Shown: in pieces, positions 8,250-39,384 of the stretch
Layout: the number at the start of each line of letters is the position of its first letter
How positions within the stretch are numbered: the stretch's first letter is position 1
From: an uncultured virus (IMG/VR IMGVR_UViG_3300042882_001139)
Lineage: Duplodnaviria; Heunggongvirae; Uroviricota; Caudoviricetes
Reading direction: 5' to 3' (one strand)
Length of the DNA: 64,000 nucleotides
Virus record (IMG/VR): IMGVR_UViG_3300042882_001139
Coordinates: 1-64,000 of that record
The notes under the pieces: generated by a model
What the model was told of the DNA's origin: nothing
Seen by the model: the letters and a program-made list of their open reading frames with translations, nothing else
The model's database searches: none
Program-made: the position numbers and the translations under genes

Positions 8250-9284
8250 ATGGCCAAAGGTTTAGACGTTGGTACTTCATTCATTGTCCTGGCTTCAGAC
8301 TCCGAAGCCCCCGTTAGCTACACCAGCGACGATAAGTTCGACTACGTGAAGTACAAGGAACTGCGTGACGCGTTCTTTGCCATCAAGCCGACGACCCCCG
8401 TGGCCACGAAGATGATTGAGAAAGGCCTGCAGGGCAAGTTATTCGTCAAAGACGCTGACGGCACGTTTATTCTTCTTGGGCAAGACGCTATTGAAAAAGC
8501 CATCGAGCGCAACGAGTCAGCCAAACGGCCCATGTTCCGGGGCGTTGTTTCGGCCAAGGAAAAAGACGCTCGGCGCATCCTGGCGTACATCCTGAAAGAA
8601 GTCGTCGGCACGGCCAGCGAACCCCACGAAAAACTTGTGTTTTGCGTTCCGGCCCAGCCCGTCGACCAAGAAGACGAAGACTTTGACGTTGGGTATCACG
8701 AAGACGTGGTTATGACCATTTTGGCCGAATGCGGGTACATGGCCCGGGCGATCAACGAAGCCGAGGCGCTGTGCTATTCCGAACTCGAGAAAGATGACTA
8801 CACCGGCGTGGCACTGTCATGCGGCGCTGGCATGGTGAACTGCTGCATCATGCTCAATGGTGAGCCGACAGTCATGTTTAGCACCACCAAATCCGGCGAC
8901 TGGATTGACCGTATGGCCGCCGTCGCTACTGGTGAAAAAGACTCGGTGGTACAGGCCGAGAAAGAGCAGGGTGACTTCACGATTGGCGAACAGAACGATA
9001 ATCCGGTGCTGGCTGCTGTAAGTGCGTATTACGAGCGGTTGATTGACTACACGACCAAAATGCTGGCGCACGCGATTGCTGGCCACAAGGCGTTACCCAA
9101 ATTTAAAGATCCGTTGCCGGTTGTAATTGCCGGAGGGACCAGCCAGGCCAAAGGCTTTATTGACGTGTTCGCAAAAAAATTGGACGACAACGGATTTCCA
9201 TTACCAATTAAAGAAGTGCGGCACGCCAATGACCCCCTGCATGCCGTCGCGCGTGGTTGCTTAATTGCAGCCAAGATTCTCTGA
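8250..9284 (+). CDS. actin-fold ATPase (MreB/MamK/ParM superfamily)
   Basis: GLDVGT phosphate-1, CVPA, INEAEA connect, SCGAGM phosphate-2, IAGGTS adenosine motif, AVARG. Confidence 0.85.
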   Translation: MAKGLDVGTSFIVLASDSEAPVSYTSDDKFDYVKYKELRDAFFAIKPTTPVATKMIEKGLQGKLFVKDADGTFILLGQDAIEKAIERNESAKRPMFRGVVSAKEKDARRILAYILKEVVGTASEPHEKLVFCVPAQPVDQEDEDFDVGYHEDVVMTILAECGYMARAINEAEALCYSELEKDDYTGVALSCGAGMVNCCIMLNGEPTVMFSTTKSGDWIDRMAAVATGEKDSVVQAEKEQGDFTIGEQNDNPVLAAVSAYYERLIDYTTKMLAHAIAGHKALPKFKDPLPVVIAGGTSQAKGFIDVFAKKLDDNGFPLPIKEVRHANDPLHAVARGCLIAAKIL

Positions 9285-10695: not shown

Positions 10696-10767
10696 TGCTC
10701 GGTGGCGCAACGGTAGCGCGGCGCACTGTTAATGCGATGGTTCTAGGTTCGAATCCTAGCCGAGCAG
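10696..10767 (+). tRNA. trnN: tRNA-Asn (GTT)
   Basis: Acceptor TGCTCGG/CCGAGCA, anticodon loop CTGTTAA, T arm CTAGGTTCGAATCCTAG, discriminator G; CCA not encoded. Confidence 0.93.
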
Positions 10768-10783
10768 CGTACAAGGAAAACCC

Positions 10784-12631
10784 ATGAACAGCTTATTCAG
10801 TCTTGATCCGCTGTTGTGGGAAACATCGTTGGAAGATCAAACCGTGTACCAGCTTGGCAACGCCATTGGCTGGCTTGGCCGCACGGGAACAAAGACGGCT
10901 GCAAATCATTCATTATCTGGCCGCTTGTATCTGGCAAAAAGCGGATGGCTTCTGCTATCTGTGCCAAACGCGTTAGTCCGTGGATTATTTGACGCCTTGG
11001 TGGCGCCCGGGGCAGAACTGCCGTTGGCCGGCGCGATGAATGTGCCCAACGTTGACGCAGATCTTTTGAACGCCCATATTTCTGTGATGACTGCCGACGA
11101 AGTGCAGTCGGTGGGTGCCGATAAGATCAATGAGCGTGGCCACAACTTTGGCTACACACTTGGGCCGTTAAAAGAAATAACCGTCCGAGGCATTAGCGGC
11201 GTAAGCAAAGTTTGGGCCGTGCAAGTCTCGAGCCCCGGCTTAACCGCAATTCGCAAGAGTTACGGATTGTCGCCGCTGCCGAAGGGCCATCCGTTTCACA
11301 TCACGGTCGCAGTACGAAAAAAGAACGTGCTCGGCGACAATGAGGTACGCAAAGCCGCTGCCGCGGACCCGAGCCAGGTTGTGCTCGTAAGCGGGCATTC
11401 TGGGGCCGGCAAATCTACGCTGTCAAAAGCCCTAGCCGAAAAATTAAAACTGCCGCGCGTATCGGTCGATCAAGATCCCAATTTTCAAAAGTTTCTTGAC
11501 GACAATACGCCGGATAATCATTTGCCAGCCGGCTCGCCCAAAGAACAAGACTTTCGGGCACTGATGCGGCAAACGGCTATGCAAACGTTGGAGAAAAACG
11601 ACGGGCCCGCCGTGGTCGAGGGTGTGCAGCTGTCGTATCTTCCGCCTGAGATTTTAAGCAAATACAAAAGGGTGCATGTAAACCCGCCTGTCGAGCAGGC
11701 GTACGAACAACGCCTTAGCCGCACAAAACAGCGGTACGAAAAAGACCCCGCAAAAAAATGGACGCCGGACGTCGAGCAAGAAAAAAAGCGTATTGCCGAT
11801 CTTGTCTATAAGTTTCACACGCCCACGATTGCGGCGTATGACAAACTTCCGGGCACGCTGAAATACAAACCAGGGCAAGACCTTTCGGCCCTACTGCAAA
11901 AACTGCAAAGCCAGCAGAAACAGGCGGATCTGTTATCTGGTGGCGAAGCCGACGGCAAGGCCGATAATAAGTTTTTGAAAAAAGAATTAACTAGGGGAAC
12001 ACGGCATGAGCACGAGCACACCGACAACGATCAAATCGCCAAAGAAATTGCCAAGGATCACTTGTCCGAAGACGCGGCCTACTACGACAAGCAAGAAAAA
12101 ATAGAGAAAGCCGCGCAGCCCGAAATCCTCAAAGACCTTTTAGCGGCAAAAGAACATTCGGATAACAAGCGCTACGACCACAAGGCCGCGATCATTCGGC
12201 GCTTGATGGCACAATCGCCTGATGACTGGGTAATCGACGACGCTAAGCCGAAATACAAAGGCATTACCCACCGGCCCACGAATTTCAGGCTCCACATAGA
12301 TCCGACCGTTATTCCGGCTGGCGTAAAAGCCGCGGCGAACAGCGTGTATTTAAATGAACTGCGGAACTCGGTATTTGGCCGCGGTCCTTTCGCGTATGAC
12401 ATGCAGAAGCCTGTGTTTGAGAACATCCGTAATCACATGGCTGAAATTAAAAGACGGGGCGACTGGATGCTGCAAGCCCAGCGGAATAATCAGTCGTATC
12501 AGGCGTTTATTAACCCGGCTTATCGCCATCAATTAGCCCTGCAGGCTTTTCACGGCAATATGCCGCAGCCATCAATCGTAGATCAAACAATCGAGCGGTT
12601 TGGCGGCAACTTTTTAGGAACACCGCGATGA
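10784..12631 (+). CDS. multi-domain cargo polyprotein: 2H phosphoesterase + P-loop nucleotide kinase + DUF5661-like + two unknown modules
   Basis: AHISV and FHITV 2H motifs; GHSGAGKST; EHEHTDN..IAKEIAKDHL.ED..YY; modules separated by KTA/KAA/KQA; no Cys. Confidence 0.75.
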   Translation: MNSLFSLDPLLWETSLEDQTVYQLGNAIGWLGRTGTKTAANHSLSGRLYLAKSGWLLLSVPNALVRGLFDALVAPGAELPLAGAMNVPNVDADLLNAHISVMTADEVQSVGADKINERGHNFGYTLGPLKEITVRGISGVSKVWAVQVSSPGLTAIRKSYGLSPLPKGHPFHITVAVRKKNVLGDNEVRKAAAADPSQVVLVSGHSGAGKSTLSKALAEKLKLPRVSVDQDPNFQKFLDDNTPDNHLPAGSPKEQDFRALMRQTAMQTLEKNDGPAVVEGVQLSYLPPEILSKYKRVHVNPPVEQAYEQRLSRTKQRYEKDPAKKWTPDVEQEKKRIADLVYKFHTPTIAAYDKLPGTLKYKPGQDLSALLQKLQSQQKQADLLSGGEADGKADNKFLKKELTRGTRHEHEHTDNDQIAKEIAKDHLSEDAAYYDKQEKIEKAAQPEILKDLLAAKEHSDNKRYDHKAAIIRRLMAQSPDDWVIDDAKPKYKGITHRPTNFRLHIDPTVIPAGVKAAANSVYLNELRNSVFGRGPFAYDMQKPVFENIRNHMAEIKRRGDWMLQAQRNNQSYQAFINPAYRHQLALQAFHGNMPQPSIVDQTIERFGGNFLGTPR

Positions 12632-12873
12632 GCAAAATAAACTGGCCCTGGCAGCCAAAGCCGAAACCTTCGCCGACACCAGACGTAACGCCGGACAAGC
12701 CGTCGCCGCAATGGATGCGTGCATTGCTGCTGTTTCGTAAAATACCTATTCAGAAATTGTTCCCGGCATTGACTCTGACGTCGTTTATTGTTTTTTTAGC
12801 TCTCAGCGGTCTGATTGCCTGGATTGTCGTAATTCTGGCTTTTGCCGTGCAGTTATTTCGAGTGTTAACGTGA
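12628..12873 (+). CDS. small membrane protein
   Basis: Pro-rich N-terminus and long C-terminal hydrophobic segment; overlaps neighbours by 4 nt. Confidence 0.55.
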   Translation: MSKINWPWQPKPKPSPTPDVTPDKPSPQWMRALLLFRKIPIQKLFPALTLTSFIVFLALSGLIAWIVVILAFAVQLFRVLT

Positions 12874-13865
12874 TGCAGCCGTCGCACGATATTTCCGCGT
12901 GGGAACAGGTACCCAACAGGGTGGCTGCGTTGCTGCCTGTTGTGGCACACATTAAAGCCGCCCACGTTGACGCCGTAAAAGACACCGGCTTACTGAGCAC
13001 CAGTTTTGTCACGTGGCGTCCGGCGACCAATACACTGACTGTGTACGCGAGTCACGACCCGAGCAGCGAAACCCAACAAAAGTACGCAGCGGCTATGCCG
13101 CAATGGTCGTGTGTATTTCAGCGTTTAGCGCCCCTGAACATTGCCGAAGAGATTGTTGTAAAAAAAGCAGGCATTACCGGTATCGCGCCAACATTTGATG
13201 CCGCACAAAACGCGCTTGGCGGGCCAACCCCTCTGACCAACGCTATTGTTACGGGCTTGGCTGCTGGCGGTCTTGGGTATGGTGCCGGCACACTGATTGA
13301 AAACTTATTCCCGGAGCGCTACTTAGAGCGCGGTAAGCTGCGAAATACGCTGGCGCTTATCGGCGGCTTGGGCGGCGTTGGCCTTGGGGCGAACAATGCG
13401 GCAGCGAATGCGCGAGCCAAAAATACAAGTTTTTTGCGTGGCTGGACAATTAAAAACTCGCAGTTTGGCGTTTACGCGCCAGAATTGAATCCGGCTATTC
13501 CCGGTGACTCGGGCATCATGGCGCCGTCGGTTAATATCCAACAATTTAACAACGCAGTTTGGAACGACGCCCGTAAAGGTTTTTATAACGGGTTTGAAAA
13601 TCACACACCGCCGGCTTATGCCGCTGCGGCAAGCGGCATGATGACTGGTTTAGGCACTGGTCTACAGTCGCCGATTATCAGGCCGTCTGATGTTATTAAC
13701 GGTATCGCGTCCGCCGGCGTTGGCCTAGCCACCGCGACGATGGCCGGCAAAGCGTTGTCTGCAATGGCCGGCTTAACGCCGCTAGCCCAAGAGAAACTCC
13801 AGGACATGGGGTTATGGGGCGGAATGATGCACGCTATTGTGCCATCTATGTTAGGCATGCGCTGA
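12870..13865 (+). CDS. putative internal virion protein with glycine-zipper segments
   Basis: IKAAH and KKAG motifs; GLAAGGLGYGAG and GGLGGVGLG segments. Confidence 0.65.
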   Translation: MMQPSHDISAWEQVPNRVAALLPVVAHIKAAHVDAVKDTGLLSTSFVTWRPATNTLTVYASHDPSSETQQKYAAAMPQWSCVFQRLAPLNIAEEIVVKKAGITGIAPTFDAAQNALGGPTPLTNAIVTGLAAGGLGYGAGTLIENLFPERYLERGKLRNTLALIGGLGGVGLGANNAAANARAKNTSFLRGWTIKNSQFGVYAPELNPAIPGDSGIMAPSVNIQQFNNAVWNDARKGFYNGFENHTPPAYAAAASGMMTGLGTGLQSPIIRPSDVINGIASAGVGLATATMAGKALSAMAGLTPLAQEKLQDMGLWGGMMHAIVPSMLGMR

Positions 13866-13930
13866 CGTGCTTGCGAATTTGTAACTGTTAAGGCACAATA
13901 TAGTGTTGTGCTTTTACTCTAGGAGGCTCT

Positions 13931-14305
13931 ATGTCGACACGTAAAGTAAGCGTTGATACTGTCCGCGAAGAAATGCGGATGTTAAATGAGGCGGCCAACA
14001 ACACCGCCGAAACGGGCGTTGGAAACTGGATGTCGTCTGATTTTTGGACAATGGCTGGTTCGGCTGTGGCTAATCTTGTGGCTGTGGCTGTGCTTATTGG
14101 CTGGGTCAGCAACACAACAGCTGCTGAGCTGACGCAGGCGTTGACCGCCGTCGTGGGTGCGACGCAGGTCATTGTTGTGAACGCGGCATTGGTGTGGAAG
14201 TATCTGTCGAACCGCAATCAACTGCGGGCGACTATCCTGAGCCATCGCTACCACTATTTGGAAGCGACCACCATTGAAAAAATGCGGATGACCGCACAGC
14301 AATAA
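13931..14305 (+). CDS. holin-like membrane protein (2 TM)
   Basis: WMSSDFW followed by TM helices; AGGAGG RBS. Confidence 0.5.
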   Translation: MSTRKVSVDTVREEMRMLNEAANNTAETGVGNWMSSDFWTMAGSAVANLVAVAVLIGWVSNTTAAELTQALTAVVGATQVIVVNAALVWKYLSNRNQLRATILSHRYHYLEATTIEKMRMTAQQ

Positions 14306-14306
14306 C

Positions 14307-14711
14307 ATGACAAACGGAGATCTCCAAAAGCGGGTCGATGCTTCGCCGCGTTTGTCGGCACTGCGGGATCGACTTACAAACGAGTTGGTGTTTCGGGCTG
14401 ACAACTCAGTTCAGTTCGACCCGCTTTTGGTACTCGCGATTATTTCGTTGATGCTGCAGATTATCTATTACTGCCGAGAGTTGCGAAAACCCGACGAGAT
14501 TAAACAAGACATCAAAGACATTCGATCGTTGCCCGCCCGCAAACTAATTCGTTTGCGGCGCCGGGCAAACCTTTTGTGGCGCGACTGTTGTGCGGACAAA
14601 CAGGACAGCCGGCACGACGCTAACCCTATTTTGACGGCACTTTACGAACTGGGCGAGTCGGCTGATGACGCCACGCTGGACGAATTAATCGAACTAGCGA
14701 AAGAACAATAA
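14307..14711 (+). CDS. hypothetical protein with one hydrophobic helix
   Basis: FDPLLVLAIISLMLQIIYYC; tightly packed in operon. Confidence 0.6.
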   Translation: MTNGDLQKRVDASPRLSALRDRLTNELVFRADNSVQFDPLLVLAIISLMLQIIYYCRELRKPDEIKQDIKDIRSLPARKLIRLRRRANLLWRDCCADKQDSRHDANPILTALYELGESADDATLDELIELAKEQ

Positions 14712-14723
14712 AGGTGACACAGT

Positions 14724-15545
14724 ATGGCAAGGACGCCAAAAAAACAAAAAAACGAAATTCTCTCCGCTAATGAAACACTGAAAAAACTCTTTGACCTTGG
14801 TTACTTTGGTGAAACACCGTGGGCGAAGGTTAAGACAATTCGCGGGGCCGATTTATCGCGGGCTGTAAAAGCCTATCAGGAGTTTAACGGCCTGGAGCCG
14901 ACCGGCGCCGTTGAGCCACGCACTGCTAGTCGCATTCACAGGCCGCGATGCGGGCTACCAGATTTTAATCTGACGGCGCCTGGCGGTGCTCCGTGCAAGT
15001 GGCTGCATAAAAAGATTACGTACTATCACGACATTACGCTTCCAGGCGTAACAGACGAGCAGGTTAAAGAAGCGTACGACATTGCTTTTTCGCAGTGGGC
15101 CGAAGTTTGCGATATTGAGCCGACCCGCGTTGACGGCTCAGATAAAGCAAACATTTATGCTCGATCAGGCGTTGGCCGTGCTAGCGGATTAGATAACAAG
15201 GGCGGCACGCTGGCCTGGAGCGAATTACCGTGCGGCGTAACTGAAAACGTGCAATTAGATCAGATGTTCGACGAGGCCGAGCCGTGGTCATTTAATATGG
15301 CCGTAGCGGTGATCTGCCACGAACTTGGGCACGCGCTTGGTTTGCCACATTTAAATTCTGGCAATTTAATGGCGCCTTATTACGATCCAAATGTAACTGG
15401 CCCACAAAAGGGCGACATTAAAGAAATTGTCAAACTATACGGTAAGCGTAAAGAAAAATACGCAATTACAAAAGACGCTGCGCCGCATATTCACGGTACA
15501 TTAGTCATTAATGGGCGGCCGTACGTGCTCGTGCCGCAAACTTGA
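14724..15545 (+). CDS. matrixin (M10) zinc metallopeptidase with PG-binding-like prodomain and cysteine switch
   Basis: AVKAYQEFNGLEPTG, PRCGLPD, HELGHALGLPH, Met-turn LMAPYY. Confidence 0.92.
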   Translation: MARTPKKQKNEILSANETLKKLFDLGYFGETPWAKVKTIRGADLSRAVKAYQEFNGLEPTGAVEPRTASRIHRPRCGLPDFNLTAPGGAPCKWLHKKITYYHDITLPGVTDEQVKEAYDIAFSQWAEVCDIEPTRVDGSDKANIYARSGVGRASGLDNKGGTLAWSELPCGVTENVQLDQMFDEAEPWSFNMAVAVICHELGHALGLPHLNSGNLMAPYYDPNVTGPQKGDIKEIVKLYGKRKEKYAITKDAAPHIHGTLVINGRPYVLVPQT

Positions 15546-20448: not shown

Positions 20449-23400
20449 GTGCTGCCCTTAAACGCGCCTCAAGAACAGCCCCGCGAATTTGGCGATGTTC
20501 CCGCTTTGCGTCAAAGCATTTTTAACAATGCTTTGCAGAGTGCACAGAGCATCGAGCCAATTAAAAACGATCTGTACACGCTGCAATTAAACGACGTAGC
20601 GTACGACGGCCCGGAAGCGTTTACCAAAGCCGATCAAAAGCGTGCTGTGCTTACACGCGGCAACCTGTCGCGAAAACTCCGTGGCACATGGACGCTGACG
20701 GATAACAAGACGAATACGCCCGTCGCCAATCGGCCCGTCACGTTAGCCAGTGTGCCGTACTTAACGGACTCCGGCACATTCGTGAACAAGGGCGTCGAAT
20801 ACACGCTGGCTCATCAATTACGTTTGCGTCCCGGCGTGTTTACCAGACAAAAAGACAACGGCGAGTTAGAGGCCCACGTTAACACGCTTCCAGGTAAAGG
20901 CCGTTCGCACCGGTACTACTTAGACCCGCAAACTGGTGTGTTCAAAATTCAAATTGGGCAGGCGCAGATTCCGCTGATGCCGCTTTTGAAAACTCTTGGT
21001 GTCACAGACAAACAACTGCGTGATACCTGGGGTAACGAGATCACTGCTGTCAACATGCAGCAAGGTGACGCCGGAACACTCGACAAACTTTATCAGCGCC
21101 TTGTGTACTCGCCAGATCCGAAAGCGGATGAACTGGCGAAGATCAAGGCTATTGCCACTGAGTTCAACAAAACAGAGTTCGACGAAGAAGTCACTAGTCG
21201 AACGCTGGGCAAGCCGTACAAAAATTTAACGCCTGACGCCATTCTCGACATCACGAAAAAACTGATTGCCGTTAATCGCAAAGAGGCGGACTCGGACGAT
21301 CGAGACAGCATGGCGTTTCAGTCTGTGTTCGGCCCCGAGGACCTGCTGGCAGAGCGTTTCGTTAAAGACCGCTCGGTGCTGCGGCAACTGCTCTGGAAAG
21401 CCACGGCAAAAAAATCTTTAGACCACATTCCGACTGGCGTGTTCAATAAGTCGATTCAGGCCGCTCTTTTAGGGTCCGGCCTTGGATCAAGTCTTGAAGA
21501 AATCAACCCGGCCGAAATCTTTGACCACCAAACGCGCGTCACCCGGCTCGGCGAAGGCGGGATCGGCAGCATGGACGCCATCCCGGCCGAATCGCGCTCG
21601 GTGCAGCCAAGCCATTTCGGATTCATTGACTATTTGCGTACGCCGGAATCTGGCAAGGTCGGCGTGGACATGCGCTTTGCCGCCGGGGCACGAAAAAGCG
21701 GGAAAAACTTACATACGTTCGTAATCCCGGTGCGGAATGCAAACACCGGGAAAACCGAATACAAAACGCCGCAAGAACTTACGGACATGCCGCTGATGTT
21801 CCCCGGTGAAGACAAGTCAGATCTTCCGATGGTTGCGGCACTAGTTGGCGGCAAGATTAAGTATGTACCGCGGAAAGACGCACAGTACACCGTTCCGAAC
21901 ATGGACAACACTTTCTCGGCACTTACAAACATGGTGCCGATGAAGTCTATGGTCAAAGGGCAGCGCGTGATCATGGGCGCTCGAATGTTTACACAGGCTT
22001 TGCCGCTCGTAAACGCCGAAGCCCCGCTCGTACAGTCTGCTACAAATGACGACGAGAACATATCGCACGAAGATCTGATCGGCGCCAAGATGGGCACGGT
22101 TAAAGCAGACGAGCCTGCCGAGGTGCTACAGGTTACACCCGACAACATTGTTCTTCGGCTGCGTGACGGTACGAAAAAGACCGTCGACTTGTACAACGAC
22201 ATGCCGTTTAATCGGAAGACGTTCTGGACGCAAAAAGCAGCCGTTCAGCCCGGCGACGTGATTAAACCCGGCCAGATTATCGCCACAAGCAACTTTACCG
22301 ATAAGAGCGGAGCGGCAGCCCTCGGCATGAATATGCGTGTGGCGTATGTGCCTTTCCGCGGCAAGAACTACGAAGACGCCATCGTGATCTCGGAATCCGC
22401 GGCCAAGCGCCTAACGTCTGAGCACATGTACCAGAACGAGGCCGAGTGGGACGACAACACGCACGTCGGTAAAAAGGCGTTTGTCAGTCTGTTTCCCAGT
22501 GAGTACGACAAAAAACTGCTCGATAACTTTGACGACCAGGGCGCGATCAAAAAAGGCACGACCGTCAACTTCGGCGACCCGTTAGTGCTAGTCGCCAAAA
22601 AGAAAGAACAGGTGTACGGAAAAGTGCACCGCGGCCGGGCAGGTAGTTTCTCGAATGACACGCTGACCTGGGACCATCATTCGCCAGGTATTGTCACTGA
22701 CGTCGAGCACACAAAGAAGGGCGTGTCCGTGGTTGTAAAGAGCCAGGCCCAGATGGAGTCGGGCGATAAGTTAACTGGTCGCTACGGGGATAAGGGCGTC
22801 ATTGCGGAAGTTGTGCCGGATAATCAAATGCCGCACGACAAAGACGGCAACCCATTTGAAGTGCTTGTCAGCCCGCTTGGTTTAATTTCACGCGTGAACC
22901 CTGCCCAGATTATTGAAGCAGCGTTGGGTAAAGTCGCGGCTAAGACCGGTAAACCGTACAAGATCAAAGATTTCGACAGTGAGAAAGACCTGGTCGAGTT
23001 TGCACAGCAGGAACTCGCCAAGCACGGGTTATCTGACACCGAAGAAGTTATTAACCCAGAGAGCGGCCATAAAATTCCTGGAATATTAACTGGCCAGCGG
23101 TTTTTCATGAAACTGCACCACACGGCTGAATCCAAAGGCCAGGGCCGAGCGATGGCGGGTTATACAGCCGAAGGTACACCGGCCAAAGGCGGCTCTGAGG
23201 GTGCAAAGCGTGTCGGCATGCTGGAACTGGGGGCTTTGCTTTCGCACGGTGCTGGCAAAGTAATCCGCGACGCCAAGATGGTACGTGGCCAAGCGAACCC
23301 TGAGTACTGGTCGCAATTCATGGCCGGGTATGACGCTCCGCTGCCCAAGGTTCCACACGTGTATGAGAAGTTCGTAAATCAATTAAAGGGTGCTGGCATC

Positions 23401-24822: not shown

Positions 24823-24838
24823 ACACAGGGAGGCTTTC

Positions 24839-25483
24839 ATGGCGATCAACCCGTATTTAATGTCGATGGCCCGCGATCAATTCGAGAAGTCGGCCGTCGT
24901 TCCGCCTGGCGGCGGTGACCCGTCTATGGGTGCAGCCCCGCCTGTTGATCCTTCTATGGGCGGTGCGCCGCCTATGGACCCGGCTGCTATGGGTGCCGTT
25001 CCACCCGCCGGCCCGGCTGCACCGGTTGATCCGGCCACCGCGATGGCTGCAATGGGAGGTGCTCCCGCCCCCGCTGCGATGCCTGCGGCTGCGCCCGCTC
25101 CCGCTGCGCCGGCCGGCGGCCAGAAGTTAAAGCCTGAGCAGATGATGCAGATGATCGATATGCGGCTGTACAACATGCAACAGCAGTTAACATCGATTAT
25201 GAACGCCATGGGCGTGCAAGTCGCTCCTGAGTCGCTTGTTCTTCCTCCGGGCACGACTGGTGCCCCGCCTGCCGAATCGGCTCTCCCCGGCGGTCCTATG
25301 GCTCCGCCTCCGCCGCAAGACCCTGCCGCGGCTGGTATGCCTCCCGGTGGTATGCCTCCCGAGGCTATGCCGCCTGAGATGGCGAAAGGTGCCAACTGGA
25401 ATGCCGGTCAGATTTTAGATCTGCATACCAAGGCGTCGGCGATCAAGGCGTTACGGAGGAGTTTAGAGAGCAATGCGGGTTAA
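24839..25483 (+). CDS. Pro/Gly/Met-rich low-complexity protein with K-x-A leader
   Basis: GGGAGG RBS; FEKSAV; short helical core LKPEQMMQMIDMRLYNMQQQL. Confidence 0.65.
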   Translation: MAINPYLMSMARDQFEKSAVVPPGGGDPSMGAAPPVDPSMGGAPPMDPAAMGAVPPAGPAAPVDPATAMAAMGGAPAPAAMPAAAPAPAAPAGGQKLKPEQMMQMIDMRLYNMQQQLTSIMNAMGVQVAPESLVLPPGTTGAPPAESALPGGPMAPPPPQDPAAAGMPPGGMPPEAMPPEMAKGANWNAGQILDLHTKASAIKALRRSLESNAG

Positions 25484-27595: not shown

Positions 27596-27674
27596 TGTAG
27601 GATAATAGGCTGTAACACGCTAAAGTAGTAAACAGTCAGCGTTTCGTTACGTTTAGTGCCGCATGGAGGTGGCC

Positions 27675-30068
27675 GTGTACAACAAAAGCAAAAAAGAAGC
27701 GTCGTGGCAGCACTGGCTGAAGGTAGTTAGGTCTCACGACCGCAGCCAAGTCAAACAGGCCGAAATTGGCGGCCGTGGCGATGACACTTCTTTTGAACAG
27801 GCGTTTTCTAACCTGGCCCACGCTTACTTGCGTGACTCAGCGCCCAAATTGCTTGATCACGAAGTCGGTTTCCAATTATTGGACCGCAACCGCGAGAACA
27901 CAAAAGCCGTTGGCGTATTTGCTTTTAAAGTCGGTGCCCAGTGGCTTTACGCCCCGGTATTCTTTTTAAACGGCGACTTGAAAGGGCACGAACTCCTGTA
28001 CATCAAAAATCAGGATATGTTCGTACCGCTCAAAGAAAACTGGATCAACTATTTAATCAATCGAAAGCCGAACATCCTTGGCAACGGCGTCGATCGAAAT
28101 CTGTCGAATCTTGGCCAACGGCAGCCGGACTTCACGCAACTTTCCCGCAGCCCGTCAAAGTTCGGCTCGGCGCAGCCCACGCTCAAAGAGATGATGACTG
28201 CGGCCATGCCGGCATTTGCGAAATCGGCCACGATGAATACCGCCCAGGCTTTTGCCGAACTTGGCAGTGCGATCAACCTGCCGGCGTTCTTAAAAGAAGC
28301 CAGCATGCAAATGTTAAGCACGCTGGTTAACAGCTGCAAGAAAGCCCCCGAACTCGCCGAGGCCATCGACTCGTTCCACGGTTTAAATATCGTCAAAGAG
28401 GCCGTAGCACAGGCGTCGGCTCGCGTAAGCCGCACAAAAGTGGCGAGCGTGTTGTCTGAGGCTCCCAAAACGCCAGCGGCTGAAAAGTCGCTTGAAGTCA
28501 TTACGCTCGATACGACGGTGCAGACTAAGTTACCGCCGGGTCACACAGAAGAAGACCAGGAAAAACTTTTGCGGGACGGCGTGCTGATTCTCGACAAGCG
28601 GGATCGCGACAACGTTTCGATTCCCTACCATATCCAAGTCGAGAAGCGGCTGTTTAATCCGACCGAGAGCGGTCTGTACGAAATCCTCGTCAAGCCGGGC
28701 AATATTGAACGCTGCTACGTGGCCGTATTCCCGATGGGTGCCGCCAAGCGGTCTAACTTCGTCACGGTCGTTCGCATTGACGGTAAAGCCGACTGGATTA
28801 ACACACGGGCTGACCATGTTTTTGCACTTTCCCGCGTAGAGGGCGAAGAGTTTGACAAATGGTATGACGGTCTTCCGGAAGCCAAAAGCCTTCCGTCCGG
28901 TCGCTCGCGCGTAATGCTGCTTAACAAGCGCGGCGACACTACCGCCCCGGTTCGGAGCCTTCGCGAATATGGCGAAACAAATGGCTCGACGGTGTACGAA
29001 GTGCATCTCGAGGATTACACAAAGTTTCCGCCCAAGGGCAGCATTTCTCCGTGTTGCTACTCTGACCCGCTTAATTACGACAAGTACCGCGACGGCGTGC
29101 GGCTGCATTTAAACGGTAAAAAGGGTTCGTCGCTGCGTGCCAGCATGGGCGACATCTTTGTGCCGGAAGGGTTCAAGATGCTGAAGTGCGAGCCGGGCGA
29201 AGACGACGTCGATTCGGCTGAAGGGCAGGGTGCATGCGGTTGCGGCGAAAGCAAAGATCCGCCGCTGATGCCGGGCAACCTGCTTGACGCCCAGATGGAG
29301 TTGATGCAAAAAACATCGTCTTTAACTGTGACAAATAACGGTCACGCTGTAGAGATTCACAGCGGGCAAAAACAACTCGTTGAAAAAGAACTGTCTGAAA
29401 AGCAGGCACTGGTGTCGTTAGTACGGCAGCACGGTTTACGAGAAGAAGCCGCCCGCGACATTCTGAAACAAGCGGCTGATAAACGAAAGTTTGAGTGCCG
29501 CGTAAAATATGCCGAGCCGTACGGCAGCCCGATGATGATCAACAGTGCCCCGAACGCTCCGAGTGATCCCGGCGCGGTCATGGGCGGCGAAAGCATCATG
29601 GGCACGAGCGTTCCAACACAACTCGGTATTGACGTCGGTATGCCTGTGTCGGGCATGGCTGCTAGTCAGACGGATCGCAGCGTTTACAACCCGAACACTG
29701 AGTTAGATCAAAAAGATTTACGCTCGGTAATCGACGCCGCTCAAAGCGGTCAACGCGAAGTATTTGACACAGCGATGATTGGCTCCATGTTGCGAACTGT
29801 ACGCGACGACGGCATGGTAGATCGCTACATGGGTGAACTGACAAAGGGCCTCGACAAACTGGGGCGCATCTTGTTTATGTTTTATTGGCATGGCGACCGG
29901 TTTGCCGATCGTTATGGCAAGGCCGACATGCCGGAACTGGAAGATTCGCTGCGTAACGCATTTGAGATGCTTGGCGACGTCATCTTGTTCCTGAAGCAAA
30001 AGACAATCGAGCCGTATCCAGAAGAAGCCAACAGCGACGTCGACTTAGGTCCCGTTGCCAACTCTTAA
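27675..30068 (+). CDS. large head-associated protein with many K-x-A motifs
   Basis: GGAGG RBS before GTG 27675; VKQAE, AKSAT, LKEAS, TKVAS, VKYAE; position in head module. Confidence 0.6.
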   Translation: MYNKSKKEASWQHWLKVVRSHDRSQVKQAEIGGRGDDTSFEQAFSNLAHAYLRDSAPKLLDHEVGFQLLDRNRENTKAVGVFAFKVGAQWLYAPVFFLNGDLKGHELLYIKNQDMFVPLKENWINYLINRKPNILGNGVDRNLSNLGQRQPDFTQLSRSPSKFGSAQPTLKEMMTAAMPAFAKSATMNTAQAFAELGSAINLPAFLKEASMQMLSTLVNSCKKAPELAEAIDSFHGLNIVKEAVAQASARVSRTKVASVLSEAPKTPAAEKSLEVITLDTTVQTKLPPGHTEEDQEKLLRDGVLILDKRDRDNVSIPYHIQVEKRLFNPTESGLYEILVKPGNIERCYVAVFPMGAAKRSNFVTVVRIDGKADWINTRADHVFALSRVEGEEFDKWYDGLPEAKSLPSGRSRVMLLNKRGDTTAPVRSLREYGETNGSTVYEVHLEDYTKFPPKGSISPCCYSDPLNYDKYRDGVRLHLNGKKGSSLRASMGDIFVPEGFKMLKCEPGEDDVDSAEGQGACGCGESKDPPLMPGNLLDAQMELMQKTSSLTVTNNGHAVEIHSGQKQLVEKELSEKQALVSLVRQHGLREEAARDILKQAADKRKFECRVKYAEPYGSPMMINSAPNAPSDPGAVMGGESIMGTSVPTQLGIDVGMPVSGMAASQTDRSVYNPNTELDQKDLRSVIDAAQSGQREVFDTAMIGSMLRTVRDDGMVDRYMGELTKGLDKLGRILFMFYWHGDRFADRYGKADMPELEDSLRNAFEMLGDVILFLKQKTIEPYPEEANSDVDLGPVANS

Positions 30069-31393: not shown

Positions 31394-33004
31394 ATGCAGA
31401 CATTGAGCAAAGAAGCCGAACAAAAGTTAATTGCTGCGATTGAAAAAGCTGCAGCATTAGTCAACGAAGGGCTATCGCCAAACGCTGCAATCATTAAGAG
31501 TGCCGCCGCCGCCGATATTCCCGCGGGGCATATTAACCTTATGGTGCATGCGTACAACACAGGCCGCACCACCAAGCAACGCGAACAAGGCGAAAACACG
31601 ACTGAAAAGTCGGCTGATTTCCAACTGGCTGACGCCCCCACGGTTTTAGATGCTCTGTACCCCAAGGCTGTTAAAACGTCGGCAGAAATCGTGCGGCAAG
31701 AAATTGTATCTACGGACTACGCCGTTTCGCCTGCCGGCATGCTCGCTCGCCGCGTGGCTGAGCAGGAGAAGGCCGCAGCGGCTCAAGTGGCATTACCGGC
31801 AAAGACATATGTGCCGTATCCGCGTGACGAGCAATTCGCCGCTGAGCGGGCCTATAGCGTCAAACGTGCCGAGCAGTTGGCTGACGAGGAGCGGCGCCGC
31901 ATCGCTACGGCTGCGTACTCTAAAGCCGCCGCGGCGCTTGACGGCGTAGTTGAGTATTTCCGCACTCCGGGAAACATGTCGTTCGCCGACGCTGTTCGTC
32001 AGGTTGGCTTACGTTTCGGCGACGAGGGTGTTTCGGTGCTGCACAAGGTGGCCGAAGTTTATCCTCAGTTTAAAAAGCAAGCGGCAACGAACAACAACCA
32101 CTTTGGCGATAACCCCCTGTACGCCCGCGTACAAAATGTTGTTATTCTGACGGAAGAATATGTCAAAGCGAGCGCGGACTTAAAAAAAAAGACGCCAGTA
32201 ATTAGTAATAAGAAAGTAGCCACTTTTCTTACAGGTTCGGTGCTGCAGGCGCCGGTAGACTTCTCTAACGGCGTAACTTTAAAGCAAGCAGCAGGCCCGC
32301 GTGGCGGGCATTTTCCTGTATCTGCCGGGCCAGGATTACCGCCGAGTCTTGCGGCGACATTATTCGGCATTAACCCGCCTGCTCCGCCTGCACCGCCTGC
32401 ACCGCCGGCAAAGCCATCTCCTAAGCCCGAAAAGCCGGAAGAGAAGAAGCCGCAGGGCAACCGTGGCGGCGGTGGCGGCGGTAATCGTGGTGGTGGCGGT
32501 GGCGGCAAGGGTGGTGCCAGCAATTACGAAAAAAACTTACAAACGTTTTTTGAGAGTGCTAACCGGCCAGTCAACACTGTTGGTGAACAAATTGGTCTTG
32601 CTGGTGCTGCCTCGCCAGCCGGGATGGCTAAAAGCATTCTTGGCTTAGACAAAGAGCCGCGCGACATTGGTTTAAAGATGTTGAAAGAGATCTCCTCGCC
32701 CGACCACGAACTGACGCTTAAAAATATTCGCGCTCAAGCCACGCTTCACGACTTGATGCTTAATGACGACGTCATCTCTGGTTATAGCCCTCAAGAAGTA
32801 GCATTGGCGTTTAATGAAGTAGCCGACGCGGCGCCAAACGTCGTGCAGTCCCCGGCTGTCTTACGTGCCATGCTTCGGAAACGTTTAGAGGCCGGACAAC
32901 TTGCCGATTTTGACGCGAAACAATTACTTGAAATGGATAAACTCAAAGCCGAGCGGGATCAAACAATGCTTTCGGCCCGCAAACTCCAAGAAGAACTTGC
33001 GTAA
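31394..33004 (+). CDS. head-associated protein with many K-x-A motifs
   Basis: IEKAAA, IKSAAA, EKSAD, EKAAA, KKQAA, LKQAAG; no Cys. Confidence 0.6.
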   Translation: MQTLSKEAEQKLIAAIEKAAALVNEGLSPNAAIIKSAAAADIPAGHINLMVHAYNTGRTTKQREQGENTTEKSADFQLADAPTVLDALYPKAVKTSAEIVRQEIVSTDYAVSPAGMLARRVAEQEKAAAAQVALPAKTYVPYPRDEQFAAERAYSVKRAEQLADEERRRIATAAYSKAAAALDGVVEYFRTPGNMSFADAVRQVGLRFGDEGVSVLHKVAEVYPQFKKQAATNNNHFGDNPLYARVQNVVILTEEYVKASADLKKKTPVISNKKVATFLTGSVLQAPVDFSNGVTLKQAAGPRGGHFPVSAGPGLPPSLAATLFGINPPAPPAPPAPPAKPSPKPEKPEEKKPQGNRGGGGGGNRGGGGGGKGGASNYEKNLQTFFESANRPVNTVGEQIGLAGAASPAGMAKSILGLDKEPRDIGLKMLKEISSPDHELTLKNIRAQATLHDLMLNDDVISGYSPQEVALAFNEVADAAPNVVQSPAVLRAMLRKRLEAGQLADFDAKQLLEMDKLKAERDQTMLSARKLQEELA

Positions 33005-35519: not shown

Positions 35520-36908
35520 ATGGCACGGATGCAACGTTCCCTTTTCGCTCAACTCAATGCTCTTGCTGACGAAATTTCGCAGAGCACAAAAGCCGCTGCT
35601 GAAAAAGTAGCTGGCCCCACGCCTTCTGATCCGGGCGGCTATCAGGGCGCCTCTTCGCACCCGACGACCAGCGTTGATAACAGTGTGCAGAATGCTGACA
35701 CCGGTGCGCGTGCTTCCGAGTACGAGACCGACATCAAGAAGCAGCAGGGTGCGTTAGCTGTAGACAACACTCCGGAAATGTCGCAAGAGGGTCGGCAGAA
35801 CGAAGTGCAGTTAAACATCAATACAAATGCCAAGTCGACCGGCGAAGATCCCGCTGCCGAAAAGGATTTCAAGGGCACGAAGGATGACCCGGGCACATCG
35901 CATCCCGCCAAGACCAACGACGGCGAGAAGTACTCGTCGGCCTCGTTCAAGGAAGCACGCAATCACTGCGGTAACCTCGGCAACGACATCCTCGCGAACC
36001 TTATCAACTTTGGCACGGACAAGTTAACAAAGAAGTCTGACGACCACCTAATAGGCGGCCAAAAAAAGTTAGACGTTAATGACAACGGCAAGATCGACGG
36101 CTCGGATCTCGCTGCGCTCCGCAGCGGCAAGGCCGAAGCCGGTTCCGAAGCCGGCAGCGAAGACAGCGACGAGAAGTCCGACGCCGGTGATGAGAAGGAA
36201 GAAAAGTCCGACGCTGGCGACGAGAAAGCGGCTGCGTTTAAGGCGGGCTATGAGTTAGCCGCACACTTTGGGATGGACAAAGCCGCGGCCGAGGCTTCGG
36301 TGCGCGAGGTGTGCGCGAACACTCTCCGCGAGGCTGACGAAATGGCCGACCTGTTCATGGGTTTTTTAAGTTCAAAGCAGGCCGCCGCGGACCCGACAGA
36401 GGAAGCGTCGGAAGGTGAGGATCACAGTGCCCCGGCTGACGTTGGTTCCGGTGCGGCTCCGGCCGGCCTGGAAGAAATGCTCGGTGCTGAGGGTGGCGAT
36501 CCGGCTGCGGCTGGTGGTGCTGGCATGGAAGGCGCCGGCATGGAAGGTGCTGGCCCTTCGGAAGACGAGGCTGTACAAGAACTGGCTATGGCGCTGGAAG
36601 AACTCGGCATTCCGCCGGAAGCGCTGCTTGAGGCCATTGCTGGCGGCGAGGGCGGTGGTGCTGCAGGCGGAATGCCGCCGGAAGCCGCTGGTATGCCGCC
36701 GGAAGCCGCTGGTATGCCGCCGGAAGCCGCTGGCATGGCACCCAAGATGGCCGCTGCCAAGCGAGCCAGCGAACTGCGGTCCATTGGTGCTGCTGTAATG
36801 AATTTTAAACGTGCTGGTAAGTTCCAGGTCAAAGAGGCCCGCACCAAGCGGTCTCGGCAACTTCGGGACATCATGAAGCAGCACGTCATCGAACTCGTAA
36901 ACCGTTGA
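35520..36908 (+). CDS. putative scaffolding/prohead core protein
   Basis: Acidic, Ala/Gly-rich, many K-x-A motifs, between protease and capsid; EF-hand-like DVNDNGKIDGSD. Confidence 0.65.
   Translation: MARMQRSLFAQLNALADEISQSTKAAAEKVAGPTPSDPGGYQGASSHPTTSVDNSVQNADTGARASEYETDIKKQQGALAVDNTPEMSQEGRQNEVQLNINTNAKSTGEDPAAEKDFKGTKDDPGTSHPAKTNDGEKYSSASFKEARNHCGNLGNDILANLINFGTDKLTKKSDDHLIGGQKKLDVNDNGKIDGSDLAALRSGKAEAGSEAGSEDSDEKSDAGDEKEEKSDAGDEKAAAFKAGYELAAHFGMDKAAAEASVREVCANTLREADEMADLFMGFLSSKQAAADPTEEASEGEDHSAPADVGSGAAPAGLEEMLGAEGGDPAAAGGAGMEGAGMEGAGPSEDEAVQELAMALEELGIPPEALLEAIAGGEGGGAAGGMPPEAAGMPPEAAGMPPEAAGMAPKMAAAKRASELRSIGAAVMNFKRAGKFQVKEARTKRSRQLRDIMKQHVIELVNR
36672..36734 (+). repeat. 21-bp coding tandem repeat (MPPEAAG) x3
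   Basis: atgccgccggaagccgctggt repeated. Confidence 0.9.
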
Positions 36909-36927: not shown

Positions 36928-37353
36928 ATGTCGAAAAACAATAACGCGCTTGTTCAAAACATCATCGACTACATCGGTTACTCCGATGCGGCGATGACGA
37001 AGGCTGCTGCGGTACTGCAGGAGCGGGACGAGCAAACTGAAAAGGTCGCCCGTCTTATTCCCGAAGCCGTTCAGGCTTGCGTGGACAACGAGCGCATCGA
37101 GCCGCACCAGAAGGAAGCGCTTGCCGCCGCCTTAAGTGACCCGGCTCGCACAATGGAACTGGTCATCAAGTTAGCGACGCATAAAAACGCCGCTGAGTTG
37201 GCCCGTCTCGGCACGCCGGTCGCTACAAAGACTGCCGGTTATGACCCTGCGGGCAGCCTGACGAGCGGGTATGTGGGTGCCCGCGATGGTCGCCTCAAGG
37301 CTTCTGACGTGAAGTTGTTCACGGGCCTTGGTTTGAATCCGCCCACAGCCTGA
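36928..37353 (+). CDS. head-module helical protein
   Basis: GGAGG RBS; TKAAA, EKVAR, IKLAT, TKTAG. Confidence 0.6.
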   Translation: MSKNNNALVQNIIDYIGYSDAAMTKAAAVLQERDEQTEKVARLIPEAVQACVDNERIEPHQKEALAAALSDPARTMELVIKLATHKNAAELARLGTPVATKTAGYDPAGSLTSGYVGARDGRLKASDVKLFTGLGLNPPTA

Positions 37354-38038: not shown

Positions 38039-38965
38039 ATGCCCACTCAGCAAGAAGTTCAACTGCTCAACGAGACTCTCTTTGAGCAACTCGATACCCC
38101 CGGCATGCAGAAGCAGGCCATTGATGCTGTTAACGACTTCACGCGCACCAAGATGCGTGAAGACGGGTTCTACCGGCGGATTATGCCGCCGCTGACCATC
38201 ACCAACGACGAGCTCGACCGTCAGGTTGACACTGACAAGCCCGTCAAGGTTGTGGACAAGGAGCCCGATTCCCCGGCGGCTGTGTCGCTTCCGTTTGCGA
38301 CACTCCCGATCAACTTTTACATCCGTGGCCCGCGCTACCGCGTCATGTTTGACCGGATCGTGTCGCCCCGTGCTGTGAAGGACGTCGACGAACTCCGTAC
38401 GTATGTCATCGACATCCGTCAGGTGCTCAGCGACAACATGATCAAGGACATGCTCGCCGAGGAAGACTCGAAGTTTATTGCCGCTTTCAAGGCCGTACTC
38501 CCGACGCCTGGCACCGAAGTCACGATGTCGGAAACGGTTCAGTACGAGGAAATCTCTGGTGGCATCACCCGCGAAACGCTGGTTGACGCCCTCAAGGTTA
38601 TGCCCCGTACGCCGTCGCACTTTGAAGTTGAGACCTGCCTCGTGAATAACATCACGATCAAGGAACTTCTCAAGTTCGGCCGCGACGAAATGGGTGGCGA
38701 TTTCAGCCAGGACATCATCAAGAATGGCTGGGCTGAAACCAACTTCCTGAACTGCCGCTGGATCGTCACGATCAAGCGCGACCTCGTTCCGGACGATTCG
38801 CTGTTCATGTTCGCTTCGCCGAAGTTTATCGGCAAGAACTACGAGCTGGAACCCACCACGATGTACATCCGTCGTGAGGCTTACATGCTTGAGTACTTTG
38901 CCTACAACACGCAGGGTGGTTCGTTCGGTCATACGAACGGTCTGGCCCGTGTTGACTTCAAGTGA
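38039..38965 (+). CDS. putative major capsid protein (HK97 fold)
   Basis: Position after protease/scaffold/decoration; strongest C-ending codon bias; QKQA near N-terminus; EEDSKFI backbone-helix-like motif. Confidence 0.7.
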   Translation: MPTQQEVQLLNETLFEQLDTPGMQKQAIDAVNDFTRTKMREDGFYRRIMPPLTITNDELDRQVDTDKPVKVVDKEPDSPAAVSLPFATLPINFYIRGPRYRVMFDRIVSPRAVKDVDELRTYVIDIRQVLSDNMIKDMLAEEDSKFIAAFKAVLPTPGTEVTMSETVQYEEISGGITRETLVDALKVMPRTPSHFEVETCLVNNITIKELLKFGRDEMGGDFSQDIIKNGWAETNFLNCRWIVTIKRDLVPDDSLFMFASPKFIGKNYELEPTTMYIRREAYMLEYFAYNTQGGSFGHTNGLARVDFK

Positions 38966-38997
38966 GTCGTGTAAAAACTAACCAAAGGAGCACAGAG

Positions 38998-39384
38998 ATG
39001 GATCAGATTAAACAAGCGGCTGAGCAGGCTTATGCCACGATTGTGGCTGAACTTGCTGCGCCGTATTTCTTCGAGAAACTTGCCGCCCACGGGGTTGCCC
39101 CGCGGTCGGAGCAGGAGGCCTCTGAAATGTGGTCGATTGCGAACAAGTTACATGTGCTCTACACGGCGGAACAAGAAAAGGCCGCTGCGGCGCAGGTTTC
39201 GGGACTGTCGGCTGCTAACCAGCGACTCGACGCCGTCCTCGCCGCGGCGGGCCTTTCTGGCCCGGTTGAGAAAGTGGCCGCTTTCAAGGGGGCCGCTGAC
39301 GTGGCGGCAGAGCAGCCGGCGATTGCCAATGCTGTTCTGACGCTGCAAGCCGCGGCTTCCGCTGCTATGCAGAACGCATCCTGA
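38998..39384 (+). CDS. Ala-rich head-module protein with K-x-A motifs
   Basis: AAGGAG RBS; IKQAA, FEKLAA, EKAAA, EKVAA. Confidence 0.65.
   Translation: MDQIKQAAEQAYATIVAELAAPYFFEKLAAHGVAPRSEQEASEMWSIANKLHVLYTAEQEKAAAAQVSGLSAANQRLDAVLAAAGLSGPVEKVAAFKGAADVAAEQPAIANAVLTLQAAASAAMQNAS

Follow-up and report, generated by a model that had tools for sequence, protein, structure and literature searches.

Domain architecture of the 615-residue protein

The 64,000-nucleotide stretch of DNA analyzed here (hereafter the window) comes from an uncultured virus of the class Caudoviricetes (IMG/VR record IMGVR_UViG_3300042882_001139) and represents the first 64 kb of a 123-kb record that is estimated to be 60% complete. 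Our subject is the open reading frame (ORF) at 10784..12631 (+), which starts with ATG and encodes a 615-residue modular protein of the 2H-SAK/polyvalent type. The start codon is backed by the conserved N-terminus of the homologs. Comparison of homologous sequences indicates that this protein is a string of independent cassettes, each bounded by a short K-x-A-[A/S] tag, and that the tag is under selection at the protein level.

The protein begins with a leader (residues 1–39; 10784..10900, +), which ends at the first joint (K37-T-A). The 2H phosphoesterase module (residues 40–192; 10901..11359, +) carries the two H-x-S/T motifs at residues 98 (HISV) and 172 (HITV) and ends at joint 2 (K190-A-A). 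It is followed by a P-loop kinase module (residues 193–381; 11360..11926, +) with the Walker A motif GHSGAGKST at residues 204–212, which ends at joint 3 (K379-Q-A), and by a DUF5661 module (residues 382–444; 11927..12115, +), which ends at joint 4 (K442-A-A). Module 4 (residues 445–517; 12116..12334, +) extends to joint 5 (K515-A-A), and the helical module 5 (residues 518–615; 12335..12628, +) forms the C-terminal part. A preliminary description of the ORF, made from the sequence alone, had proposed this succession of leader, 2H, kinase, DUF5661-like and two further modules, and the Pfam matches and the sequence agree with it. K-x-A occurs at residues 37, 190, 379, 442, 467, and 515 (nucleotide positions 10892, 11351, 11918, 12107, 12182, and 12326, respectively). 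The five positions named in that description are correct, and the sixth, K467-A-A, did not appear in it. We rejected K467-A-A as a joint because an alignment of the C-terminal regions showed that it is not kept in relatives, and we regard it as a chance occurrence. A count of the residues also bore out that the protein is free of Cys; at the Cys frequency of the genome (1.5%), the probability of this is ~7e-5.

Homologs were collected at E≤0.001 (392 among 8,000 candidates scored), and the family counts given here refer to the 120 of them that were listed. The conserved leader (~36 residues) lies outside the Pfam 2H-SAK match and is marked by the conserved residues Y22, G29, W30, and L31. Its joint has the consensus K-Q-A-[A/S]-T-N in relatives, and its sequence was found in no other protein of the 123-kb record. 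In the whole protein, Pfam 2H-SAK (PF22547) matched residues 96–182 with E 2.7e-10 and 41 bits (cut-off 27). The match reached 43.5 bits when the 2H module was scanned alone; 2H-SAK was the sole Pfam family for residues 1–192 and the only one found for the 2H module at E≤10. Both catalytic His residues were invariant in 35 of 35 sequences, and in the larger set H98 was present in 120/120 and H172 in at least 90% of the relatives. K190 of joint 2 was kept in 119/120.

The kinase module matched AAA_18 at residues 200–321 (31.2 bits with a cut-off of 29.4 in the whole protein, 32.8 bits for the module alone). The AAA_33 match to this module stayed just below its threshold (26.3 bits vs 27), and the SKI family matched as well. 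A kinase module was present in 11 of the 120 relatives, in each of them directly after a K-x-A. The DUF5661 match (residues 405–442) scored 25.4 bits vs a cut-off of 27 in the whole protein and 30.5 bits when the module was scanned alone. This module contains the motifs LLxGGxAD, H408-E-H-E-H-T, and D425-H-L, in this order. Module 4 is characterized by the succession HSD, W, and G-I-T-H-x-P-T-x-F-R-x-H. When modules 4 and 5 were scanned singly against Pfam, no family matched; module 5 occurred in 120/120 relatives.

The AlphaFold model of the whole protein had a mean predicted local distance difference test score (pLDDT) of 81.8 and a predicted template modeling score (pTM) of 0.37. This combination of high pLDDT and low pTM suggests a chain of well-folded beads whose mutual arrangement is not fixed. 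Internally, pLDDT fell below 50 only at residues 30–41 and 185–196, which correspond to joints 1 and 2; residues 1–7 at the N-terminus were also below 50. G29, W30, L31, K190, A191, and A192, which lie within or near these low-confidence segments, are among the best conserved positions of the family. Joints 1 and 2 are therefore conserved although they are predicted to be disordered, as is typical of a short linear motif. Coil, with pLDDT of 73–79, was predicted at joints 3 and 5.

The predicted kinase fold resembles shikimate, gluconate, and NMP kinases (Z 12.1 to the shikimate kinase 1e6c_A, with a root-mean-square deviation of 4.2 over 163 aligned residues; Foldseek E 1.4e-4). The model was confident over residues 44–180 of the 2H module. 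Fold searches with the whole protein were filled by kinase matches, with one BFVD match named 2H-SAK (E 1.9e-3), and a search of PDB sequences with the 2H module gave only chance-level P-II matches (E 0.14 or weaker). The C-terminal 234 residues folded alone with a pLDDT of 84.8, and DUF5661 appeared as three helices in the models. Against solved structures, these 234 residues gave a best Z of 5.2 (helical hairpins) and a best Foldseek E of 0.46 in the PDB, in hit lists that barely sampled DUF5661 and module 4. A profile search of PDB sequences with the C-terminal modules gave no match.

Joints and cassettes in the protein family

To count joints across the family, the strict tag was defined as K[AQTSV]A[AST]. 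The 120 listed relatives span 413–1007 residues and differ in their NUDIX and kinase content. They contained 313 strict tags, compared to 33.3 ± 5.5 in composition-preserving shuffles; these sequences are kin, and the counts are therefore not independent events. Plain K.A was slightly elevated (614 vs 533), and the reverse control A.K was flat (520 vs 535). K.A was located upstream of all 11 P-loops, of 40/40 NUDIX boxes, of 131/135 GRLY anchors, which mark the start of the 2H module, and of 109/121 DUF5661 anchors.

Ten reference cassettes were then mapped onto the 120 relatives. Their starts were extrapolated and scored as coincident when they lay within 5 residues of the end of a K.A. Such coincidence was found for the starts of 2H (116/120), kinase (11/11), a Cys-rich mini-module (38/38), NUDIX-b (36/41), and module 5 (104/120). 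It was lower for NUDIX-a (4/9) and for the X11 cassette (1/11), a 144-residue stretch without a family whose reference was taken from one relative. The 120 relatives displayed 76 distinct cassette strings. The order of cassettes was permuted, with the kinase on either side of NUDIX, the two NUDIX types either way round, and NUDIX after DUF5661, and kinase, NUDIX, Cys-rich mini-module, and module 4 were gained, lost, or reordered at joints. A comparison of module content among related phages, as suggested in the preliminary description, thus revealed changes at the K-x-A joints. When 32 C-terminal regions were aligned, module 4 was absent en bloc in 6 and almost entirely in another 3, the breaks lying at I-E-K-x-A and V-K-A-A; five other relatives carried Pro-rich inserts after I-E-K-x-A.

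The joints are conserved at the protein level, because 79 joint sites in 34 distinct genes used 63 different 12-mers with ordinary codon usage. A recombination signal acting at the DNA level was rejected, as the codons vary freely. Signal-peptidase sites of the A-x-A type were also considered and rejected, since K-Q-A-A does not fit them and the leader is acidic.

A profile built from the 120 sequences retrieved 9,732 representatives of 50%-identity clusters at E≤1e-3, 3,223 at 1e-10, and 481 at 1e-30. The best 150 of these mostly share only the leader-plus-2H part, with lengths from 162 to 2,913 residues. In these 150, the leaders end with K-x-A-[A/G], and N-[D/E]-V-x-K-A-A comes after the 2H domain in most cases. 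In 30 long distant members, Pfam matches comprised InPase (12 members), LigD_N (8), SNF2 (7), and ATP-dependent ligase (2), with GNAT, SET, NUDIX, and Peptidase_C39 as further partners. The tag was again frequent in 144 further members (187 vs 32 expected). In 17 large members, 74 K-x-A-[AGST] sites fell outside Pfam-matched stretches and 5 inside, and those outside were often 20–30 residues before a domain. The InPase matches fell in genes of cultured phages that are annotated as DarB-like, portal, or internal head protein. The repertoire of InPase, SNF2, GNAT, NUDIX, LigD_N, and ligase identifies the family as phage polyvalent proteins, and the 615-residue protein likewise joins disparate domains (2H, kinase, and DUF5661) in one phage-encoded polypeptide.

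Proteins of this kind have been described before. In the accessible text of Iyer et al. 2017 (PMC5512222), 2H and InPase are each listed as confined to phage-type polyvalent proteins, which are predicted to be packaged and injected. The published polyvalent proteins also combine several unrelated enzyme domains in one phage polypeptide, and the wider 2H-SAK family shares with them the partners InPase, SNF2, GNAT, NUDIX, and SET (PMC5512222). Both the protein kind and the idea of a packaged, injected 2H acting on nucleotide signals are thus already in print (PMC5512222). The 615-residue protein differs in its small size and in its K-x-A-[A/S/G] tag common to head proteins, whereas processing by embedded zincin (HExxH) peptidases is proposed in that text. 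The joint tag and its sharing with head proteins were not found in the literature searched, and the main text of PMC5512222 does not contain the word "linker". Within the accessible text of the literature searched, a Lys-x-Ala prohead-protease motif was not found, and in the literature searched DUF5661 was not mentioned by name.

A complete relative (G003) encodes a second Cys-free polyvalent protein of 789 residues with an SNF2 domain (G003:C1:47950-50319, −). Its N-terminal part contains a sub-threshold Tpt1-like stretch. Its joints read K-Q-A-A and K-Q-A-D-L-L-P, the latter matching K-Q-A-D-L-L-S at joint 3 of the 615-residue protein. This SNF2 protein was not found in the incomplete record to which the window belongs.

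The tag in the probable head gene block and the surrounding genes

The head block was defined before counting and comprises the plus-strand ORFs between 27663 and 39384, 11 in all. Its designation is a lead, based on the position upstream of the sheath gene and on a 308-residue capsid candidate. The block contained 20 strict tags vs 2.8 ± 1.7 expected, a 7-fold enrichment; the highest count in 300 shuffles was 7. In contrast, the 134 other ORFs of the 123-kb record contained 17 tags vs 13.5 ± 3.5 expected. All 146 ORFs together had 40 vs 16.4 expected, including 3 in the 615-residue protein. Five tag-bearing head proteins, which were picked after the fact, contained 18 tags vs 1.8 expected. 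In the same five proteins the reverse motif (1 vs 1.9) and the R-, E-, and D-variants (0, 0, and 1) were not enriched.

These five proteins are a portal-sized protein of 801 residues with 3 strict tags (27663..30068, +; the portal call relies on size and position), a Cys-free protein of 536 residues of scaffold/internal type with 7 tags (31394..33004, +), an acidic scaffold-like protein of 462 residues with 4 tags, the first at residue 24 (35520..36908, +), a 141-residue protein with a tag at residue 25 (36928..37353, +), and a Cys-free protein of 140 residues with 3 tags (38962..39384, +). The 308-residue protein (38039..38965, +) lacks the strict tag and is probably the major capsid protein, as judged from its Atlas language-model features (score 0.98; 211–212 of 256 features common with clusters named major capsid protein). 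One tag of the 536-residue protein, K-Q-A-A-T-N, is identical to the consensus of the leader joint in relatives of the 615-residue protein, and four head-block proteins carry a tag at residues 17–25. In a complete 198-kb relative, 5 of the 8 proteins with at least two tags were the homolog of the 615-residue protein and the orthologs of head-block proteins. The acidic 462-residue protein also contains GMPPEAA repeats, an EF-hand/dockerin-like DVNDNGKIDGSD loop, and a basic C-terminal helix.

The 402-residue protein encoded outside the window (C1:85365-86573, −) belongs to no known family and has 3 strict tags and many K-x-A-A. It is 65% identical to its counterpart in G003 and may be processed too. 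Of the 106 proteins of at least 120 residues on the 123-kb record, 15 are Cys-free, including the 615-residue protein. The others include RNA polymerase (RNAP) subunits, a sigma-like protein, the 536- and 140-residue head proteins, and a 1290-residue protein encoded after the tail tube (55259-59131). This Cys-free class may consist of proteins that travel through the tail.

Relatives of this phage were found on ~200-kb contigs, some of them with terminal repeats. The 123-kb record also encodes PhoH, a tail-sheath-like protein, baseplate J, a collagen-repeat protein, and the large terminase. A tRNA-Asn gene (anticodon GTT; 10696..10768, +) lies 15 nucleotides upstream of the 615-residue ORF, and a functional tie between the two is putative. 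Among 28 related loci, 14 have this tRNA immediately before the homologous gene, and 21 have it no more than 10 kb away. A complete relative has ~10 tRNAs, so this one is not unique. Downstream of the ORF, genes for small membrane proteins (12628-12873, 12870-13865, and 13931-14305) precede a gene for a matrix metalloproteinase (MMP)-like metzincin (14724-15545, +), which matched Peptidase_M10 and PG_binding_1 and contains the cysteine switch PRCGLPD and the motif HELGHALGLPH. The region 12628-15545 may be a lysis cassette. Upstream, an actin-like protein (8250-9284, +) matched Pfam Volactin (E 1.9e-61), a family that takes its name from an archaeal actin.

A multisubunit RNAP is encoded at 20449-24822, 24806-25483, 25709-27595, and 62285-63109 (+). 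Besides a 1457-residue fusion of beta with N-terminal beta', it comprises the C-terminal part of beta' as a protein of its own and a sigma-70-like protein. All RNAP proteins are Cys-free, also in relatives (P ~2e-10 for the 1457-residue protein), and could constitute a virion-packaged polymerase by analogy with phiKZ-type phages. A MoxR/dynein-type AAA_5 ATPase (41822-42697, +) lies within the structural gene region. Outside the window, a 1370-residue protein with collagen triple-helix repeats and 50 Cys is encoded in the baseplate/fiber region (C1:76063-80175, +), and a tRNA-like gene with a two-base anticodon (tRNA-??? in ARAGORN; ~122270-122341 of the 123-kb record) adjoins tRNA-Gln. The complete relative G003 contains a phage tmRNA with the tag peptide GASAPALAA beside a cluster of six tRNAs (L098:7248-7602, −).

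Processing and function of the modular protein

We tentatively prefer the reading that the 615-residue protein is a cargo polyprotein of the polyvalent kind, packed in the head and cut at the tags, with the freed enzymes injected; its chance of being correct is close to even, although somewhat short of it. The precursor would be made late and would enter the assembling prohead via its leader or another part. The capsid maturation protease would cut at the tags, as in the scaffold-like proteins, and the freed enzymes, retained in the head, would accompany the DNA into the next host. Less firmly, the 2H module might open 2',3'-cyclic-phosphate (or 2'-5') linkages and the kinase might phosphorylate 5'-OH ends. 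Acting together in this way, both modules could heal the ends of RNA that host anticodon nucleases or toxins have broken, for a host ligase to seal. Alternatively to healing, they might destroy nucleotide alarm signals. The preliminary description had already proposed a cleavable, head-packaged polyprotein. This part of it is supported by the tag-bounded cassettes and by the tag being common to the head block, whereas the proposed likeness to Acb1 did not hold in sequence.

In its placement at cassette bounds, in the head block, and in low-confidence linkers at the first two joints, the tag resembles the prohead-protease sites of T4 and of phiKZ/SPN3US-type phages. The internal proteins IPI-III and Alt of T4 have a capsid targeting sequence that is cut by gp21 at L/I-x-E. 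Many further copies of the T4 protease tag are found in the scaffold core; one short leader is removed from each single-domain cargo, and the cargo enzymes accompany the injected DNA. T4 Alt is annotated as a capsid protein that enters the host. The 615-residue protein likewise has an N-terminal leader followed by a tag that recurs in scaffold-like proteins. In contrast to the T4 cargo, its K-x-A-A tag would split the chain into five or six pieces, and no gp21 homolog was found. In SPN3US, the cleavage motif of the protease gp245 is of the A-x-E form. Internal head proteins of SPN3US are cut by this prohead protease (PMC10052503). According to the accessible text on phiKZ and SPN3US, these large myophages possess many internal head proteins that are cut at a short motif recurring in propeptides; the phage RNAP is among the packaged proteins, and the cleavages remove N-terminal propeptides (PMC10052503, PMC7411985, PMC5694885). 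The cleavage motif there differs from K-x-A, and that text describes no polyprotein built from shuffled enzymes. P1 DarB, a 250-kDa polyvalent protein, has a short N-terminal segment that suffices for capsid targeting, also of a foreign protein (PMC9024508, accessible text). However, DarB is packaged whole, and its segment has no sequence kinship to the leader of the 615-residue protein.

Several observations weigh against the packaged-polyprotein reading. The composition of the 615-residue protein (50 Lys and 60 Ala) predicts ~5 K-x-A, and 6 are seen; the motif is at chance level in this protein alone and becomes significant only via the homologs and further proteins encoded in the genome. 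The model does not place joints 4 and 5 in low-confidence segments; K442 of joint 4 falls inside a predicted helix, and the starts of DUF5661 (41/120) and module 4 (61/120) coincided poorly with the end of a K.A. The gene lies ~15 kb upstream of the head block and adjoins the probable lysis cassette. Tag sites of the head proteins are kept to a degree that varies from site to site (in the 536-residue protein, residues 35, 126, 228, and 297 in 4/4 relatives and residue 18 in 1/4; near the N-termini, residue 24 of the 462-residue protein in 3/3, residue 25 of the 141-residue protein in 3/3 as KAAA, and residue 17 of the 140-residue protein in 2/2), but the relatives compared are 57–91% identical, which makes these conserved sites weak evidence. 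The tag after 2H also persists in short leader-plus-2H proteins and could therefore belong to the 2H domain instead of marking a joint. Searches of 50,697 GenBank phage records by tblastn or megablast, for which the 615-residue protein, the portal-sized protein, a short leader-2H relative, and 20 kb of the window served as queries, yielded no cultured relative; one distant family member matched GenBank phages, solely through its InPase domain.

A capsid protease was not recovered either, although a divergent one may be encoded. Pfam S77, S78, and ClpP were found in 0/5 related records, four of them complete, in searches validated by 2H-SAK, which exceeded its cut-off once in each record. Nineteen proteins encoded between head and sheath gave hhalign probabilities of ≤1.7% to T4 gp21. 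The T4 major capsid family Gp23 was also searched for and not found. The 309-residue protein encoded after the portal-sized gene was rejected as the protease, since it has no invariant Ser and an hhalign probability of 0.1% to T4 gp21; none of its 243 homologs is annotated, and weak Atlas hints point to small terminase or helix-turn-helix (HTH) proteins. Pfam and PHROGs scans of the larger ORFs of the window and of 30 ORFs from the remaining half of the record, where 23 more of at least 120 residues lie outside the set scanned, revealed no protease.

The negative protease searches and the tag after 2H in short proteins would fit an unprocessed, cytoplasmic, multi-domain end-healing enzyme of the Swiss Army Knife type, which would act as a single chain in the infected cell, with K-x-A-[A/S] as a flexible linker inherited with the cassettes. 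Pfam names 2H-SAK after the Swiss Army Knife RNA-repair proteins (Burroughs and Aravind 2016, cited in the accessible text of PMC7824862), and the 2H-SAK domain with kinase/NUDIX cassettes is common to those proteins and to the present family. In contrast to them, no RNA ligase or HAD phosphatase was seen in the system of the 615-residue protein. The position of the gene outside the head block and beside tRNA-Asn also fits an unprocessed enzyme, and kinase, NUDIX, LigD 3'-phosphoesterase, and ATP-dependent ligase form a heal-and-seal set that could profit from linkage. However, a passive linker leaves unexplained the tag enrichment in the head block against a chance level elsewhere, the flat counts of the reverse motif and the R/E/D variants, the top conservation of linker residues that are predicted to be disordered, and the free permutation of cassette order. 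We consider an unprocessed enzyme unlikely. Quite improbable in our view is a polyprotein that is cut by a protease other than that of the capsid, in the cytoplasm or after injection, with DUF5661, the MMP-like peptidase (14724-15545), or a host protease as candidates. DUF5661 resembles a zincin in its two catalytic helices, as H408-E-x-x-H412 is followed on the subsequent helix by E421 and D425, and this HExxH is highly conserved among the listed relatives (H408 in 106/120, E409 in 120/120, and H412 in 119/120); embedded HExxH peptidases, as noted above, have been proposed for polyvalent proteins. A gene with HExGHxxGxxH lies 2–3 kb downstream in 47/47 related loci of at least 16 kb, and the classical prohead proteases were not found. 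Against this, DUF5661 is a three-helix unit of ~63 residues without the zincin beta-sheet and without a match to solved structures in structure or sequence, and no embedded zincin or other peptidase family was found in the 615-residue protein by Pfam at E≤1. The peptidoglycan-binding domain of the MMP-like protein and the small membrane proteins encoded before it make lysis the better fit for that gene, and a tag that also occurs in scaffold-like proteins speaks for head assembly.

Independently of how the protein is processed, its 2H module may be an anti-defense enzyme that degrades nucleotide second messengers (cyclic oligonucleotides or 2'-5' oligoadenylate) instead of an RNA-end healer, a possibility that we regard as doubtful. 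T4 Acb1 (gene 57B) is an anti-CBASS 2H phosphodiesterase. The likeness to Acb1 in the preliminary description found no support at the sequence level. Both are phage proteins of the 2H type with two H-x-S/T motifs, yet the profile comparison (hhalign probability 0.5%, E 0.11, 31 columns) separates the families, and the module belongs to Pfam 2H-SAK. Signal degradation would fit the NUDIX cassettes that are common among relatives. It also follows the proposal of Iyer et al., whose 2H section, in its accessible text, reports no association of polyvalent 2H with RNA ligases and suggests an RNase or degradation of 2'-5' oligoadenylate or cyclic nucleotides (PMC5512222). In the five related records (that of the window, ~60% complete, and four complete relatives), RNA_ligase (PF09414) and RtcB (PF01139) were found in 0/5 with positive controls, which speaks against RNA repair; T4 Rnl1 (PF09511) was also found in 0/5, although its control matched nowhere. 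Tpt1 gave only a sub-threshold match, which likewise argues against repair. On the other hand, the kinase has no obvious role in signal degradation, and 2/30 distant members fuse 2H to LigD_N and ATP-dependent ligase, with LigD_N in 8/30, which amounts to an end-repair set. The pairing of a 2H cyclic phosphodiesterase with a P-loop 5'-OH kinase (a putative specificity here) is shared with the end-healing enzymes fungal Trl1, in its CPD and kinase domains, and T4 Pnkp (PMC7145591 and PMC3592404, accessible text). Those systems have a dedicated ligase, whereas the present kinase is nearer to generic shikimate/NMP kinases; its match to PHROG 505, "polynucleotide kinase", had an E of 0.042. The 2H and kinase pair, the LigD phosphoesterase and ligase cassettes of distant members, and the upstream tRNA-Asn point to end healing, which we rank, from these sequence features and without confidence, slightly ahead of signal degradation.

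It is possible, although we lean against it, that the very large polyvalent clade consists of true polyproteins, in which cassettes flanked by K-x-A-[A/G/S] behind one leader and 2H domain would be cut in the head by a protease not recognizable by current family models and injected at time zero as a cocktail of free effectors particular to each phage. In such a clade, new effectors would be added by inserting a cassette between two tags. If the tags are linkers only, the 615-residue protein belongs to a described family as one of its ordinary small members. If they are cleavage sites, phage effectors that are packaged and injected could be recognized in metagenomes by a simple sequence rule, and the tags would mark the boundaries of uncharacterized effector modules (DUF5661, modules 4 and 5, and the Cys-rich module). 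They would also imply an unrecognized maturation protease in a widespread lineage of ~200-kb freshwater phages, and the polyvalent-protein hypothesis of 2017 would become directly testable.

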